This document shows positions 9,839-12,668 of a DNA stretch of 19,276 nt, piece after piece (positions within the stretch are counted from its first letter, which is position 1; each line of letters starts with the position of its first letter). The notes under the pieces were generated by a model, which worked only from the letters and a program-made list of their open reading frames with translations, did not search any database and had not been told where the DNA came from. Origin of the DNA: a virus (taxonomy: Duplodnaviria > Heunggongvirae > Uroviricota > Caudoviricetes). The translations under genes and the position numbers were made by a program. The DNA is taken from IMG/VR virus record IMGVR_UViG_2617270963_000006, one strand, 5' to 3'.

Positions 9839-10423
9839 ATGACCACTTTTACAAAAGAGCAGTTAATCAGTCATGTTAGTGAAAATGTAAAGGCGATGAA
9901 ATTTGCAGTAAAACAGACAGCATTCAAAAATTCTCTCGAGGCAATTGAGTTGGATTTAGCACTGGCCCTTGTTGCTCAGGCTTCGCTGGAAGCAGAGCCC
10001 GTGCTTTATATGAATCGATTTACCGGAAAGACATTCTCACTGGAAGAGCAACCTGGTGCTGATAAGGAACCGGAAATATACGTGCCGCTATATGCTGCCC
10101 CGCCAGACAGCGCCGCCATGCTTCAGGCTGGAAACTTTCGGGAAAAGAAGGGTTCGTCAACCAATAATTTTCGGGAAATCTCGGAAACGTCAACCAACCA
10201 TCCGGTAACTCTGGATGGTTGGATAAGCTGTAGTGAGCGAATGCCGGATGACGGTCAGCACGTAATTATTTTATGTGATGGCGCATTCGTTCTTTATGCG
10301 CAATATCGAGACGGTGAGTTTTTTGATGTAGTCCGTGATGGTGATGAATTTTTCGAAACACAGAGCCGCAATGTAACCGACTGGATGCCGCTACCAGAAC
10401 CGCCGCAGGAGGTGCGCCAATGA
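9839..10423 (+). CDS. phage protein with a DUF551-type C-terminal domain (Eaa/Ead-like), about 194 aa
   Basis: ATG at 9839 with AAGGAGAA upstream; C-terminal motif VTDWMPLPEPP, which I recall as characteristic of DUF551 phage proteins. Confidence 0.55.
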   Translation: MTTFTKEQLISHVSENVKAMKFAVKQTAFKNSLEAIELDLALALVAQASLEAEPVLYMNRFTGKTFSLEEQPGADKEPEIYVPLYAAPPDSAAMLQAGNFREKKGSSTNNFREISETSTNHPVTLDGWISCSERMPDDGQHVIILCDGAFVLYAQYRDGEFFDVVRDGDEFFETQSRNVTDWMPLPEPPQEVRQ

Positions 10424-10503
10424 TCTGGCCTGAAGCCTTTGCAATTACAGGCGTTGCTATAGCTATTGATTTTTTAGTATATGTTATTTGTCGGTGGGGG
10501 TAA
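10420..10503 (+). CDS. tiny hydrophobic peptide (27 aa, MIWPEAFAITGVAIAIDFLVYVICRWG), predicted single transmembrane helix
   Basis: Not in the ORF track (under 60 aa). ATG overlaps the upstream stop (ATGA); AGGAGG 7 nt upstream. Confidence 0.35.
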   Translation: MIWPEAFAITGVAIAIDFLVYVICRWG

Positions 10504-10538
10504 AAACGTTCGCCGGGATTAACACCAAAGGAGGGAAT

Positions 10539-10643
10539 ATGTCGGATGATATATCACTGGCAATGGAAGGTGCGCTGGCTGTTATTGCTGTTGTGGGCGT
10601 TTACTGCCTGGTTGTGTTTTTGATGGATCGACTAGGGAACTGA
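10539..10643 (+). CDS. tiny hydrophobic peptide (34 aa, MSDDISLAMEGALAVIAVVGVYCLVVFLMDRLGN), predicted single transmembrane helix
   Basis: Not in the ORF track. AAGGAGGG immediately upstream of the ATG. Confidence 0.35.
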   Translation: MSDDISLAMEGALAVIAVVGVYCLVVFLMDRLGN

Positions 10644-10774
10644 ATTCATTACGATATGGGAATTCCCATATCGGGTAAAAACGGTTTGCGGTAAAGCGAG
10701 AGTTAAGCAGAATTGCTGCGGGTGCTTGAGGCTGTCTGCCTCGGGCATGCCACCGTAAGGCAGACAGAGAAAAA

Positions 10775-10860
10775 CCCCAGTTAACATTACGCGTCCTGCA
10801 AGACGCCTAACATTAATCTGAGGCCAATTTCATGCTAGACACATGTAGGTTAGCCTCTTA
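10775..10860 (-). ncRNA. sok: candidate Sok-like antisense RNA of the hok/sok module (position approximate)
   Basis: Inferred from hok-family organisation: the antisense regulator lies opposite the hok leader. No promoter or terminator was pinned down. Confidence 0.3.
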
Positions 10861-10888
10861 CGCGCCGAAAGGCAAGGAGAAGCAGGCT

Positions 10889-11044
10889 ATGAAGCAGCAA
10901 AAGGCGATGTTAGTCGCCCTGATCGTCATCTGTATTACCGTCGTAGTGACGGCACTGGTAACGAGGAAAGACCTCTGCGAGGTACGAATCCGAACCGGTC
11001 AGACGGAGGTTGCTGTCTTCACAGCTTACAAACCTGAGGAGTAA
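10889..11044 (+). CDS. hok: Hok/Gef-family type I toxin (51 aa)
   Basis: MKQQKAMLVALIVICITVVVTALVTRKDLCEVRIRTGQTEVAVFTAYKPEE is nearly identical to chromosomal Hok homologues (HokD/RelF as recalled). In-frame upstream extension from ATG 10832 (track ORF 10832-11044). Terminator follows. Confidence 0.85.
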   Translation: MKQQKAMLVALIVICITVVVTALVTRKDLCEVRIRTGQTEVAVFTAYKPEE

Positions 11045-11111
11045 GAGACCAGGCGAGGGAGAAATCCCTCGCCACCTCTGATGTGTCAGGCATCCTCAAC
11101 GCACCCGCACT

Positions 11112-11134
11112 TAACCCGCTTCGGCGGGTTTTTT
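11112..11134 (+). terminator. rho-independent terminator after hok
   Basis: CCCGC-TTCG-GCGGG followed by TTTTTT. Confidence 0.7.
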
Positions 11135-11253
11135 CACGTACTGTGGTTGTGAATACGATTGGTATTAGGCTATGCTAACAACATTAGCCTGACTAATTTT
11201 GTATTGACTTGATTTTTGTTAAAGAACAGGACGGAGAAGTAAGGGTACACCCA

Positions 11254-11433
11254 ATGAGCTACGCACTAAAAAAACACCCGCGATTGACTATTCCCCCTCG
11301 CGATAAAAGCGTTGTGGCAGCTCCGCGCCCGGCTATCGATGAAAATTGCACTCATCGTGAGCAGGTGAAAAATGCTTTCGATTTCGGTTTTTCTCGTTAC
11401 GAGAAGGCAATGGAAGAACTTTCAAAAGTGTAA
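11254..11433 (+). CDS. putative antitoxin of the Doc-family module (59 aa)
   Basis: Small ORF immediately upstream of the Doc-like toxin, separated by about 18 nt; ATG at 11254 (track ORF begins at a TTG at 11209). Not recognisably Phd-like. Confidence 0.5.
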   Translation: MSYALKKHPRLTIPPRDKSVVAAPRPAIDENCTHREQVKNAFDFGFSRYEKAMEELSKV

Positions 11434-11451
11434 TGATGGGTATTGTGCTCT

Positions 11452-11937
11452 ATGGCTGAGATTGTTGAAGGAGTGCACTACCTTTCGTTTGATGATCTTA
11501 CCGAAATTAATCGCCTTTTAATTGAGCTTCAAACACCAGATGAACCTGTTAGTGTGCTGAGTGTTGATAATTTAAGTTCTTCTCAGTCTCGTCCCAGCAT
11601 GGTTCGATGGTATGAACAGACTAATGACATGTTTGTACTGGCATCAGTATTGATTGAAAGTCTGATTCAGAATCATCCATTTGCTAATGCAAACAAACGA
11701 ACAGCTATGATGGCTGGTTATGTCTTCTTGTTGTTGAATGGCTATGAGTTAACAGCACCAGGCGATGAAATCGTGGAAATGGCAGAGGGACTGGCCTGCA
11801 AAACCTATACTCGAGAAGATCTCGAGAACTGGTTGTGTTATTGGTCTCGTGCGTATGACAGCCGGGAATTATGTAAAACAGGCGCAACTATTGTTTTGTA
11901 TGAAACTATCAAGCTTAAAATAGAACAGCAAAACTAA
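11452..11937 (+). CDS. doc: Doc (death-on-curing) / Fic-fold toxin, about 161 aa
   Basis: Catalytic motif HPFANANKR fits the Doc signature HxFx(D/N)(A/G)NKR. Start is uncertain: ATG at 11452 or TTG at 11443. Confidence 0.75.
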   Translation: MAEIVEGVHYLSFDDLTEINRLLIELQTPDEPVSVLSVDNLSSSQSRPSMVRWYEQTNDMFVLASVLIESLIQNHPFANANKRTAMMAGYVFLLLNGYELTAPGDEIVEMAEGLACKTYTREDLENWLCYWSRAYDSRELCKTGATIVLYETIKLKIEQQN

Positions 11938-11953
11938 AGGTGCTTCTAATGAA

Positions 11954-11976
11954 AATCCGCTTCGGCGGGTTTTGTT
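11954..11976 (+). terminator. rho-independent terminator after the Doc module
   Basis: CCGC-TTCG-GCGG followed by a T-rich tract. Confidence 0.55.
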
Positions 11977-11987
11977 GTATTGGAGTA

Positions 11988-12305
11988 TCATGATATTACT
12001 TGGATCCCGTTTTTCTCTACGACTGAAAGAAGGCGAAGAGCGGCACCTCCCGGCCGTTTTACACCACGTTCCCAGTCTGATATCAGGTTTTTACTGACGT
12101 TGAGGTATCTGGCAAAAACAGGTTGAGACAGATGCTCTCGTTCGCGCAGTGCACGGATCCTTTCCGGAGACATTACCGGCGCTGGCTGGAGACAAGTTTC
12201 ATCGAATTCTCGCATAGTCTGTTTCGTTACTGCGCCGATATCATGAAGCGATTCCATCATTTCATGTACGGATGCAAGCGCATCACTGCGGTAATTTTTA
12301 CTCAT
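11988..12305 (-). CDS. HTH (XRE-type) antitoxin, HigA/MqsA-like, 105 aa
   Basis: C-terminal HTH (LSQPVFARYLNVSKNLISDWERGVKRPGGAALRLL); GGAGG 7 nt upstream; lies directly downstream of a RelE-like toxin ORF on the same strand. Confidence 0.65.
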   Translation of the reverse strand: MSKNYRSDALASVHEMMESLHDIGAVTKQTMREFDETCLQPAPVMSPERIRALREREHLSQPVFARYLNVSKNLISDWERGVKRPGGAALRLLSVVEKNGIQVIS

Positions 12306-12359
12306 TGGGTACCTCCGTAAACTGACCCTGTAGAATCAGTTGTGCCAGTTGTTCATCTG

Positions 12360-12668
12360 TTAGATTGAGTACGTGAGGAGCCCCTTCCGAAATGCACTTT
12401 CCTCAGTAGCGGTTATATTTTCACGTTCATTTTTTGCGTATGCATATACGAAAAAGGCCCTTGTGCCGACGCGATAGAAAATGATTGTGCGATAACCGCC
12501 AGATTTGCCGCCACCGACTCGTGGCAGACGTTGCTTGATAACGCCGTTACCCAGGTTTGCTGAGATAAGCCCGTTATCAGCCTGTTTAACAATTTCGCGC
12601 AGTGACTGGTCGGATATTTTGTTTTTGTGTGCAAATCGCTCAAACCAGGCGTTTTTAAAAATGCGCAT
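12360..12668 (-). CDS. RelE/ParE-superfamily toxin (HigB-like; toxin-first arrangement), 102 aa
   Basis: Segment GGGKSGGYRTIIFYRVGTRAFFVYAYAKNEREN is typical of RelE/HigB-like killer proteins; followed by the HTH antitoxin. Confidence 0.65.
   Translation of the reverse strand: MRIFKNAWFERFAHKNKISDQSLREIVKQADNGLISANLGNGVIKQRLPRVGGGKSGGYRTIIFYRVGTRAFFVYAYAKNERENITATEESAFRKGLLTYSI

Follow-up and report, generated by a model that had tools for sequence, protein, structure and literature searches.

Two candidate single-helix membrane micro-protein genes next to the hok/sok locus of a lambdoid prophage

Two very short open reading frames, here called ORF1 and ORF2, lie between a DUF551 gene and the hok promoter of an E. 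coli lambdoid prophage; both code for conserved, hydrophobic peptides, and translation has been observed for ORF2. The best explanation of this arrangement, to which we give a probability of about 0.55, is that they are two separate and genuine accessory genes, each for a micro-protein that would cross the inner membrane once, and that they are neither killers nor lysis proteins, nor parts of the hok/sok system.

The locus and its two small reading frames

The window is the whole stretch of DNA that was analysed (19,276 nucleotides), and its positions are counted from its first letter. The features that matter for the argument are the following.

9839-10423, plus strand: DUF551 gene (Ea22-variant type, 194 aa; Pfam PF04448, 74.7 bits; a DUF551 protein in the annotation of NZ_AP045820.1)
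10408-10412, plus strand: Shine-Dalgarno core of ORF1, GGAGG, within the DUF551 coding sequence and 7 nt 5' of the ATG
10420 (ATG) to 10503 (TAA), plus strand: ORF1, 27 aa, MIWPEAFAITGVAIAIDFLVYVICRWG, from the ORF list; putative single-helix micro-protein
10498-10508, no strand: left copy of the direct repeat GGGTAAAAACG, covering the ORF1 stop codon
10528-10535, plus strand: Shine-Dalgarno of ORF2, AAGGAGGG, from the sequence
10539 (ATG) to 10643 (TGA), plus strand: ORF2, 34 aa, MSDDISLAMEGALAVIAVVGVYCLVVFLMDRLGN, the same as RefSeq WP_001278450.1, Sakai ECs_5710 and XECs145
10654-10671, no strand: perfect palindrome of 18 bp, ATATGGGAATTCCCATAT, in the gap from ORF2 to the hok promoter
10673-10683, no strand: right copy of GGGTAAAAACG, extending into the inferred hok -35
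10686-10713, plus strand: inferred hok promoter (TTGCGG, 16 nt, CAGAAT), the right-hand limit of both small genes
10720-11134, plus strand: hok/sok/mok locus (mok 10832-11044, hok 10889-11044; Rfam RF01794, 110 bits; Pfam HOK_GEF, 82.6 bits)

An earlier note on this DNA had placed two frames of these lengths at these positions, each behind a consensus Shine-Dalgarno and both upstream of the hok locus and of a toxin-antitoxin cluster, and in all of this it was right. The Rfam sok match spans 10720-10894 (110 bits) and both frames lie 5' of it, while the annotation of a 99.9%-identical record places a Doc-type and a RelE-type toxin-antitoxin pair after hok/sok. We infer the position of the hok promoter from the start of the Rfam sok/hok match at 10720 and from conservation across aligned hok loci. 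Little weight is given to the promoter and terminator scan, a simple one that called no promoter on the plus strand and missed the hok promoter itself; in the window-type locus it also found no promoter for the expression of ORF2 in lysogens.

The 18-bp palindrome was considered as a part of ORF2 or as a terminator and rejected as both, since it is also found 5' of hok loci that have no ORF2 and is followed by no T-run. It is kept in diverged ORF2 alleles and belongs to the sequence upstream of hok, not to ORF2. The other database matches to a 16-mer of the palindrome are mostly unrelated sequences, some of which appear, from a reading of their flanking DNA, to code for helix-turn-helix proteins.

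The combination of features seen in the two frames is rare. A filter for ATG ORFs of 22-60 codons that have a Shine-Dalgarno core and reach at least 2.0 in a hydrophobic 17-mer passed ORF1, ORF2 and Hok and nothing else on either strand of the whole 19-kb window. When the 300-nt region was shuffled 5000 times with its dinucleotides preserved, one such ORF arose in 0.46% of the shuffles and two arose in none. The conservation check that the earlier note had proposed also speaks for the genes: both frames are kept in diverged relatives and a synonymous bias appears only in the proposed frames, and on these grounds they behave as real coding genes, each for a membrane peptide with a single helix.

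Averaged over the best 17 residues, Kyte-Doolittle hydrophobicity reaches 2.3 in ORF1 and 2.95 in ORF2. The claim of one transmembrane helix each stands for ORF2, with its uncharged hydrophobic span of 19 residues, and for the consensus of the ORF1 family, which has an uncharged span of the same length; in the window allele of ORF1 this span is broken by Asp17 in the middle of the helix. ORF1 carries aromatic residues at both of its ends, and only 3-5 residues follow the helices (RWG in ORF1, DRLGN in ORF2). Searches of both peptides against Pfam, NCBIfam, PHROGs and PADLOC, and of ORF2 against PDB sequences, gave no usable lead; the one match among the PADLOC defence models (E=0.023, to Cmr5) is compositional.

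ORF1, a small gene overlapping the end of an early gene

The ATG of ORF1 overlaps the TGA of the DUF551 gene as ATGA, as the earlier note had observed in proposing translational coupling, and this overlap is conserved across a whole family. The family is defined here by MxWP[ED]AF, a hydrophobic span and [CF]RWG in a peptide of 22-27 aa whose start overlaps the upstream stop; its consensus is MxWPEAF…ICRWG, its modal length is 27 aa, and it is widespread and unnamed. The window allele, MIWPEAF…ICRWG with the ATGA overlap, belongs to it. The pattern is common to 933W, BP-4795, WGPS2, PhiR12_1, TH18, SJ46, SPN3UB and one Klebsiella phage, and its carriers include, besides Stx and other lambdoid phages, one that is P1-like and phages of Klebsiella and Salmonella. 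Homologues were found in 103 phage records and, by profile search, in 153 protein clusters from E. coli, Shigella, Salmonella and E. albertii. A degenerate DNA pattern applied to one genome per species was too strict and returned E. coli and Shigella only. ORF1 is absent from the K-12 prophage CPS-53 (after yfdS) and from phage lambda (after ea22). Its database entries are scattered and carry the names “hypothetical protein” or “bacteriophage protein”, and two structural papers on the Ea22/DUF551 (exo-xis type) block mention no transmembrane or small ORF there.

Genes from at least four unrelated PHROG families precede ORF1, and the start/stop overlap is kept every time. Relatives with unrelated upstream genes also keep a purine-rich Shine-Dalgarno equivalent to that of ORF1. 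In loci that are only ~73% identical in DNA, the 27-codon frame, the overlapping start and the CRWG end are all kept. Over codons 8-27, pooled pS is 0.59 and pN 0.26, and pN/pS is 0.44 in the proposed frame vs 0.72 and 1.49 in the other two frames, which contain stops. ORF1 is intact in about 75 of the 79 loci (~95%) that were picked through the DUF551 gene alone. A few phages carry an ORF1 with TAG at codon 3 or a frameshift, and the gene must therefore be dispensable for at least some phages.

In the proposed mechanism, ribosomes that finish an early gene of the Ea22/DUF551 type would restart at the overlapping ATGA and translate ORF1, aided by the Shine-Dalgarno in the last codons of the DUF551 gene. 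A translationally coupled ORF1 would be produced whenever the operon of the upstream gene is expressed.

ORF2, a translated neighbour of hok

ORF2 is already known, as the RefSeq hypothetical protein WP_001278450.1, as ECs_5710 of E. coli O157:H7 Sakai and as XECs145, so the earlier description of both genes as unannotated fails for ORF2. XECs145 is a ribosome-profiling ORF of the Sakai prophage Sp6 (Hücker et al., 2017; PMC5597208), with an identical 34-aa core and the same order of DUF551-type gene, small ORF and mok/hok. A full-text literature search with the peptide strings had found no paper, and the match came through the supplement. In LB, its RNA RPKM is 79, its footprint RPKM 346, its RCV 4.35 and its coverage 0.99 (PMC5597208), figures whose footprints are not assignable with full certainty, given a start extended into ORF1 and several similar copies per O157 genome. 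Translation was present in untreated cultures and lost under cold and osmotic stress, and the authors' predictor assigned the product to the inner membrane (PMC5597208). That study drew XECs145 from an upstream in-frame start, as a 54-aa product overlapping the last 22 nt of ORF1, and does not note the Shine-Dalgarno-proximal ATG, the linkage to hok, the Tritos-type relatives or ORF1 (PMC5597208). Of the ribosome occupancy that the earlier note had named as a check, published profiling thus supplies the half that concerns ORF2; the screen was limited to ORFs of at least 30 aa, which places the 27-aa ORF1 outside its scope.

The Shine-Dalgarno of ORF2 is invariant in four diverged alleles and unpaired in the centroid RNA fold, and ORF2 would initiate independently at this strong and unstructured site. 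Synonymous to non-synonymous changes against diverged alleles number 6:1, 8:3 and 11.5:9.5 (P about 0.002), and the distant Tritos-type relatives, whose peptide is 54% identical over 28 aa, show pS 0.50 vs pN 0.17. By these counts, ORF2 is under purifying selection. The family has the core AL/VA..AV..(V/I)YCL.V.LMDRL in 29-34 aa directly 5' of the hok promoter, a description that the window ORF2 matches; it is confined to E. coli prophages, and an exhaustive profile search retrieved its own members and no credible outside relative. The alignment of loci that have no ORF2 shows a single copy of GGGTAAAAACG where ORF1 meets the hok promoter, and ORF2 probably travels as a short cassette inserted at that place.

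The -1 frame between ORF1 and ORF2 is open at G GGG TAA, and rare database entries are 74-aa fusions of the two. A programmed -1 frameshift was rejected, as the G-run has the same length in 66/66 sampled motif-bearing loci and ORF2 has a strong Shine-Dalgarno; the fusions are treated as rare variants or homopolymer sequencing errors.

The relation of ORF2 to hok deserves separate discussion. ORF2 was followed by hok in 58 of the 61 assessable loci chosen through DUF551, and its relatives are almost always directly 5' of the hok promoter. The opposite does not hold: the hok region is present in 4956 of 5426 E. coli genomes and the ORF2 region in only about 670. In loci L079-L081, where hok gives way to other DNA directly behind its -10, ORF2 remains intact with synonymous changes. 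The idea that either ORF is a decayed duplicate of hok was discarded, as DNA and protein similarity to hok is absent; BLASTP of ORF1 and ORF2 against Hok gave compositional matches only (E>=0.03 in a 5-sequence search). Because both ORFs lie 5' of the hok mRNA start and have no similarity to Hok, ORF2 survives the loss of hok, and hok loci without ORF2 exist, the best reading of the sequences is that ORF1 and ORF2 do not belong to the hok/sok system.

One of the less improbable alternatives, still an unlikely one, is that ORF2 is functionally tied to hok, either as a partner in the membrane that moderates or helps Hok or as a co-transcribed and translated upstream ORF that affects hok mRNA folding or promoter use. 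In its favour, each ORF2 relative that was found sits directly before a hok promoter, in at least four upstream contexts: the DUF551 gene with ORF1 in the window, a ~500-bp intergenic region in phage Tritos, HannyBb, and an ORF6N gene in locus L223. The scan showed no terminator in the stretch from ORF2 to the start of hok, and ORF2 has diverged to pS 0.5-0.75 while the hok-locus DNA 3' of it stays ~91-95% identical to the window. These points are countered by the purifying selection on ORF2 in L079-L081 despite the replacement of hok, by the majority of hok loci of this type that lack ORF2, by its dissimilarity to Hok, and by the expectation that a hitch-hiking cassette of any kind would sit near an addiction module. 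A stronger version, which makes the ORF2 family a hitherto unnoticed protein part of the hok/sok loci of prophages (a membrane peptide of 29-34 aa, possibly co-transcribed with mok/hok, that contacts Hok or shapes the expression of hok mRNA), is more doubtful still; if it were true, some hok/sok modules would be three-part systems. With two separate accessory genes, the near-constant adjacency of ORF2 and hok would be mere linkage, though it hints at a link.

Possible roles of the two peptides

The earlier note had listed exclusion, type I toxicity and holin-like activity as possible roles for peptides of this kind. It is known that single-pass membrane proteins of prophages can have exclusion roles. 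That one or both peptides serve in superinfection exclusion or defence, blocking DNA entry or a phage receptor or transporter, has a small chance of being correct: ORF2 is translated in untreated lysogen cultures and its surroundings are an accessory island with many toxin-antitoxin systems, but no PADLOC defence model or named exclusion protein resembles either peptide, and ORF1 is part of an early lytic operon and is not obviously expressed in lysogens. Exclusion proteins such as HK97 gp15 and T4 Imm are likewise prophage-encoded and embedded in the membrane, with which the lysogen expression of ORF2 fits; they are larger than ORF1 and ORF2 and unrelated to them in sequence.

A type I toxin with an unrecognised antisense RNA antitoxin, represented by ORF2 or ORF1, is improbable, and the evidence has gone against this suggestion of the earlier note. 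Both peptides have the class features of small size (27 and 34 aa), hydrophobicity and a single helix, and hok/sok is a fitting neighbourhood; promoter-like sites lie on the minus strand at 10563-10536 and 10504-10476, and for a paralogous locus in Sakai (XECs166) minus-strand transcription has been reported over the corresponding stretch upstream of hok. The number of such sites is nonetheless that of chance (3 found vs 2.2 expected in shuffles), and the better one has a -35 that is not kept in locus L005. Neither peptide matches any toxin family, and neither reaches E<=1 with HOK_GEF (PF01848), for which the Hok of the window scores 82.6 bits. Over 10200-11300, Rfam returned sok and two sub-threshold matches in the hok terminator region, with nothing over 10420-10660 at E<=1. 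The resemblance to Hok/Gef and Sok is limited to small size, an N-terminal hydrophobic helix and the neighbouring locus, whereas an HMM match, a periplasmic C-terminal domain, a mok-like leader, a fold-back mRNA and a detected antisense RNA are all missing from both peptides. Moreover, the Shine-Dalgarno of ORF2 is unpaired in the predicted fold, and its heavy translation in growing, healthy lysogens (RCV 4.35) is unlike that of a silenced toxin, while ORF1 is coupled within an operon, and type I toxin genes are not built that way.

It is also very unlikely that the ORFs are translated but functionless, by hitch-hiking or through a constraint on DNA or RNA, with ORF1 only terminating and restarting ribosomes. 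Their shortness, the nonsense and frameshift alleles of ORF1 and the narrow host range of ORF2 would fit; however, only the proposed frames of both show the excess of synonymous changes, and ORF1 keeps its length, its N-terminal motif and its C-terminal CRWG at saturated synonymous divergence and beside unrelated genes. Finally, a holin-like or antiholin-like role in lysis, which smallness and hydrophobicity alone would suggest, can hardly be correct, given that Pfam, NCBIfam and PHROG give no holin family match, that both peptides are short with cytoplasmic tails of 3-5 residues vs the charged C-tail of holins, that an annotated class II holin, lysozyme and spanin/lysis cassette lies ~8-8.3 kb downstream in the 99.9%-identical record, and that ORF2 is expressed in cultures that do not lyse.

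Small membrane proteins of bacteria are known to act by helix-helix contact with larger membrane proteins. By analogy, the two accessory micro-proteins would insert in the inner membrane and act through such contacts with a larger host or phage membrane protein, in accessory or “moron” roles such as the modulation of a host membrane protein or the blocking of superinfection. AcrZ, MgrB, MgtS and CydX are comparable in that they have fewer than 50 aa, about one transmembrane helix and a ribosome-binding site of their own, and were found by ribosome profiling and not by standard annotation. The likeness is one of size, helix and translation only: ORF1 and ORF2 have no sequence similarity to these proteins, are prophage-borne and mobile, and ORF1 would be translated through a stop/start overlap.

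Annotation routinely overlooks small membrane proteins, and the accessory regions of Stx and other lambdoid prophages are poorly understood. ORF1 would add a widespread, conserved and coupled micro-gene to the Ea22/DUF551 (exo-xis type) block, while ORF2, a micro-protein translated in lysogens and found mostly beside hok, raises the question of whether hok loci have a protein accessory. What is gained is practical and changes no paradigm: a better annotation of these regions and two well-defined candidates.

Two small reading frames upstream of hok

The window comes from a lambdoid prophage of E. coli. Over the 1.5 kb tested it is 99.9% identical to NZ_AP045820.1, in whose annotation N, a cI-like repressor, cII, replication genes, DUF1627, DUF977 and DUF551 follow one another; behind DUF551 stand a small hypothetical protein and Hok, then a Doc-type toxin, a RelE/HTH pair, the genes from NinB to Q, and a holin with a lysozyme. 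An earlier note had described two Shine-Dalgarno-led hydrophobic ORFs of 27 and 34 aa upstream of hok (ORF1 and ORF2), and this description of the sequence is correct:

9839–10423, DUF551 gene (Pfam PF04448)
within the DUF551 gene, Shine-Dalgarno sequence of ORF1, GGAGG, 7 nt upstream of its ATG
10420–10503, plus strand, ORF1, 27 aa, MIWPEAFAITGVAIAIDFLVYVICRWG; ATG start and DUF551 stop codon TGA overlap as ATGA
10498–10508 and 10673–10683, direct repeat GGGTAAAAACG, bracketing a 175-bp ORF2 cassette
10539–10643, plus strand, ORF2, 34 aa, MSDDISLAMEGALAVIAVVGVYCLVVFLMDRLGN
10654–10671, perfect 18-bp palindrome ATATGGGAATTCCCATAT, between ORF2 and the hok -35

Between the two ORFs there is a 35-nt spacer with the Shine-Dalgarno sequence AAGGAGGG, followed by ORF2. 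With the Rfam hok/sok match (110 bits) beginning at 10720, both ORFs are located 5′ of the hok transcript and precede the toxin-antitoxin cluster, as had been claimed. Three toxin-antitoxin systems follow the small ORFs in tandem, hok/sok being the first and the others occupying 11254–12667: a 60-aa ORF with a Doc-family toxin (11254–11937) and, on the minus strand, an HTH protein with a RelE/ParE toxin (11988–12667), both assigned as annotated in the near-identical RefSeq record. The 3′ end of hok with its terminator (11053–11134) gives a sub-threshold Rfam match to the Hfq-binding sRNA isrK (31 bits, where the gathering score is 50), and the putative hok -10 (10708–10713) reads CAGAAT in the window and TAGAAT in most other aligned hok loci, with the variants TAGGAT in L105 and TAAAAT in L223.

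Both are coding genes, and each encodes a hydrophobic peptide about one helix long. ORF2 has an uncharged hydrophobic span of 19 residues, as does the ORF1 family consensus, although in the window allele of ORF1 the span is broken by Asp17; the best Kyte-Doolittle 17-residue means are 2.3 for ORF1 and 2.95 for ORF2. A filter for ORFs of 22–60 codons with an ATG start, a Shine-Dalgarno core 5–13 nt upstream and a 17-mer with a hydrophobicity of 2.0 or more retained, on both strands of the 19.3 kb, ORF1, ORF2 and Hok only. When the 300-nt region was shuffled 5000 times with dinucleotides preserved, one such ORF appeared in 0.46% of the shuffles and two in none. Codon 17 of ORF1 (GAT, window 10470) puts the Asp at mid-helix; at this position most relatives carry Ala or Thr, and the window allele is common (44 sampled loci).

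The ORF1 family and its coupling to varied upstream genes

DNA searches place the ORF1 region, at 72–75% identity, in other E. coli prophages and in Stx phages, with an ORF of equal length, an identical overlapping ATGA start and an ICRWG end (e.g., MSWPEAFSNVGIAMAVALVVYSICRWG and MTWPDAFAIVGVAMSIALIVFAICRWG). Matches by tblastn were obtained in 103 phage records; the carriers include 933W, VT2-Sakai, BP-4795, Min27 and ArgO145, the P1-like Salmonella phage SJ46, Salmonella SPN3UB and Klebsiella prophages, and there are shorter relatives (MSWPEAFAIVGVAMAIAAIFIFWG, MNWPDAFLYVGIAWAFAYAITRI and MDWPTAFCIVGCAFAIAWLFRS). A profile search of 5.8 billion proteins gave 153 clusters (E ≤ 1) from E. coli, Shigella, Salmonella and E. 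albertii which, where named, are called “hypothetical protein”, “bacteriophage protein” or, in error, “DUF551 partial”; the modal length of the family is 27 and its consensus MTWPEAFTTVGIAMAVALVVYSICRWG. No ORF1 follows ea22 in phage lambda or yfdS in K-12 CPS-53, and two structural papers on the exo-xis/Ea22 region mention no transmembrane or small ORF like it.

The gene 5′ of ORF1 may be DUF551, Ead_Ea22 plus DUF551, or a protein without a Pfam domain, and these genes span at least four PHROG families (phrog_60, 1621, 2814 and 2960). Despite this, the start of ORF1 overlaps the upstream stop in every case (ATGA, TGATG or TAATG) and a purine-rich Shine-Dalgarno sequence is kept before it, so that translational coupling is a property of the ORF1 module itself. 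ORF1 is expressed by this stop/start coupling; the coupling proposed from the ATGA overlap with the DUF551-like gene holds, and coupling as such is kept throughout the family.

Eight diverged ORF1 alleles, when pooled, give a pS of 0.56 and a pN of 0.22. To avoid circularity the test was redone on codons 8–27, outside the motif by which alleles were found, and there pS is 0.59 and pN 0.26 (ratio 0.44); the other two frames give ratios of 0.72 and 1.49, and both contain stops. ORF1 is intact in about 75 of 79 loci (sampled through the DUF551 gene alone), the remainder showing one frameshift or TGG-to-TAG at codon 3. The latter change is identical in three phages from two sequence backgrounds, POCJ13 (L003), 75/02 Stx (L004) and phiSTEC1589-Stx1c (L009), at about locus position 1226–1234, and the 75/02 Stx homologue also carries a 1-nt deletion further along the ORF.

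ORF2, its translation and its place beside hok

The earlier note had called both ORFs unannotated; ORF2, at least, was already in RefSeq (WP_001278450.1) and in prophage Sp6 of O157:H7 Sakai (ECs_5710), and about 1000 contigs carry exactly this peptide. It is XECs145 of Hücker et al. (2017; PMC5597208), drawn there from an upstream in-frame start, predicted to be in the inner membrane and judged “real” by the classifier of those authors. Ribosome profiling gave, in LB, an RNA RPKM of 79.1, a footprint RPKM of 346.1, a ribosome coverage value of 4.35 and a coverage of 0.99, in BHI an RNA RPKM of 121, a footprint RPKM of 150 and a ribosome coverage value of 1.14, and, under cold plus osmotic stress, a fall in footprint counts from 316 to 1 with RNA unchanged (PMC5597208), figures to be read bearing in mind that the extended ORF shares the last 22 nt of ORF1 and that several related copies are present in O157 genomes. 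ORF2 is translated in lysogen cultures via its own Shine-Dalgarno sequence, which is invariant across alleles and unpaired in the centroid fold.

ORF2 is under purifying selection. Its synonymous and non-synonymous differences number 6 and 1 from the related locus L006, 8 and 3 from L079, and 11.5 and 9.5 from L067 (synonymous excess, P 0.002–0.005; no such excess in other frames), and its 34 codons are kept in 14 of 14 distinct DNA alleles in the sample. A translated hypothetical gene is what ORF2 had been reported to be before; its correct start, the selection pattern, the distant relatives and the linkage to hok are new.

Three rare database entries (P0028, P0032 and P0033) present ORF1 and ORF2 as one 74-aa two-helix protein (…ICRWGVKTFAGI[NH]TKGGNMSDD…). 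The frame into ORF2 is open from within ORF1, and both would be fused if the G-run that precedes the ORF1 stop (10495–10503) were one G longer; the run has its normal length in 66 of 66 sampled loci in which the motif was found.

The ORF2 family is narrow: among 1.84 billion representatives searched exhaustively by HMM, 15 matched at E ≤ 0.001, and 13 of these belong to it (the window type and two relatives of 29–30 aa). The other two, a repeat protein of 105 aa and a protein of 4211 aa that showed no matched stretch, were rejected as relatives. The 29–30-aa relatives (e.g., MLVLKCALAIAAVMAIYCLAVVLMDRLSD), with a GTG start preceded by a Shine-Dalgarno sequence, are found in phages Tritos, Evi, mEp460_ev081 and HannyBb, in contig L223 and in a few plasmid-collection records, and they too are under purifying selection (pS 0.50, pN 0.17, P = 0.01). 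In Tritos, HannyBb and L223, whose DNA was read, the relative lies directly 5′ of a hok promoter, with different genes on its upstream side; a place next to hok is presumed, in part from the coordinates of earlier hok matches, for Evi, mEp460_ev081 and most plasmid-collection matches.

In the set sampled through DUF551, hok comes after ORF2 in 58 loci and is gone from that place in three (L079–L081), having been replaced there immediately after its -10; ORF2 is still intact in them. Many hok loci are without ORF2, the ORF1 stop abutting the hok -35 in L007, L008 and 933W, and the hok region is present in 4956 of 5426 E. coli genomes and the ORF2 region in about 670. With this recurrent adjacency on one side and these separations on the other, a functional tie of ORF2 to hok is unlikely, and a role for ORF2 as a protein accessory of hok/sok loci is less likely still.

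The ORF2-less loci (L007, L008 and 933W) have a single copy of GGGTAAAAACG, linking the ORF1 stop to the hok -35, which suggests that the ORF2 cassette may have been gained or lost by recombination at this short repeat. The palindrome is conserved while its flanks diverge and occurs also upstream of hok loci that never had ORF2 (L105 type); it is part of the sequence upstream of hok. Without a T-run it is no typical terminator; it could be a protein-binding site. A 51-aa minus-strand ORF (10632–10787) extends over the hok promoter and the palindrome into the final 12 nt of ORF2, and resembles XECs166, a RIBOseq-positive minus-strand ORF of a paralogous hok locus in O157:H7 Sakai (RNA RPKM 166–637); by this analogy, antisense transcription leftwards from the sok side may occur.

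Proposed mode of action and its alternatives

It is very likely that both ORFs are real genes. Their products would insert into the inner membrane, ORF1, as the positive-inside rule suggests, with its N-terminus out and its C-terminus in, Trp3 and Phe7 being placed at one interface and Tyr21 and Trp26 at the other, and both would work by helix-helix contacts made with some larger membrane protein, a mode of action that is proposed tentatively. The overall reading, of two genuine genes acting as inner-membrane helix-contact micro-proteins, is given a probability of about 0.55.

Superinfection exclusion, also raised in the earlier note, is about as unlikely as the tie to hok. Neither peptide matches Hok/Gef or any family in Pfam, NCBIfam, PHROGs or PADLOC, nor did a PDB sequence search with ORF2 return a match. 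An unrecognised type I toxin, another possibility named in the earlier note, is improbable. The two peptides show no likeness to Hok or to each other beyond composition, no Rfam antitoxin RNA family overlaps either ORF, and antisense promoter-like sites over them occur at chance frequency and are poorly conserved; neither fits such a toxin, ORF1 being an operon-internal, coupled gene and ORF2 being efficiently translated in healthy cultures. Functionless translation is set against purifying selection and is very improbable. A lysis role has hardly any probability, the holin-like character that had been suggested being disfavoured by small size, tails of 3–5 residues, no family matches and a distance of 8 kb from the lysis cassette.

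In L083, L086, L087 and L091 (about locus position 1728–1900) a different ORF overlaps the end of DUF551 as GTGATG and begins with a hydrophobic helix (MDSFAKYTIIDWIAFLQVLLIWFYMAY…) and, therefore, the slot after DUF551 seems to favour membrane proteins. ORF1 and ORF2 belong to a known kind, the small membrane proteins of prophages, and ORF1 represents a widespread yet uncharacterised family.
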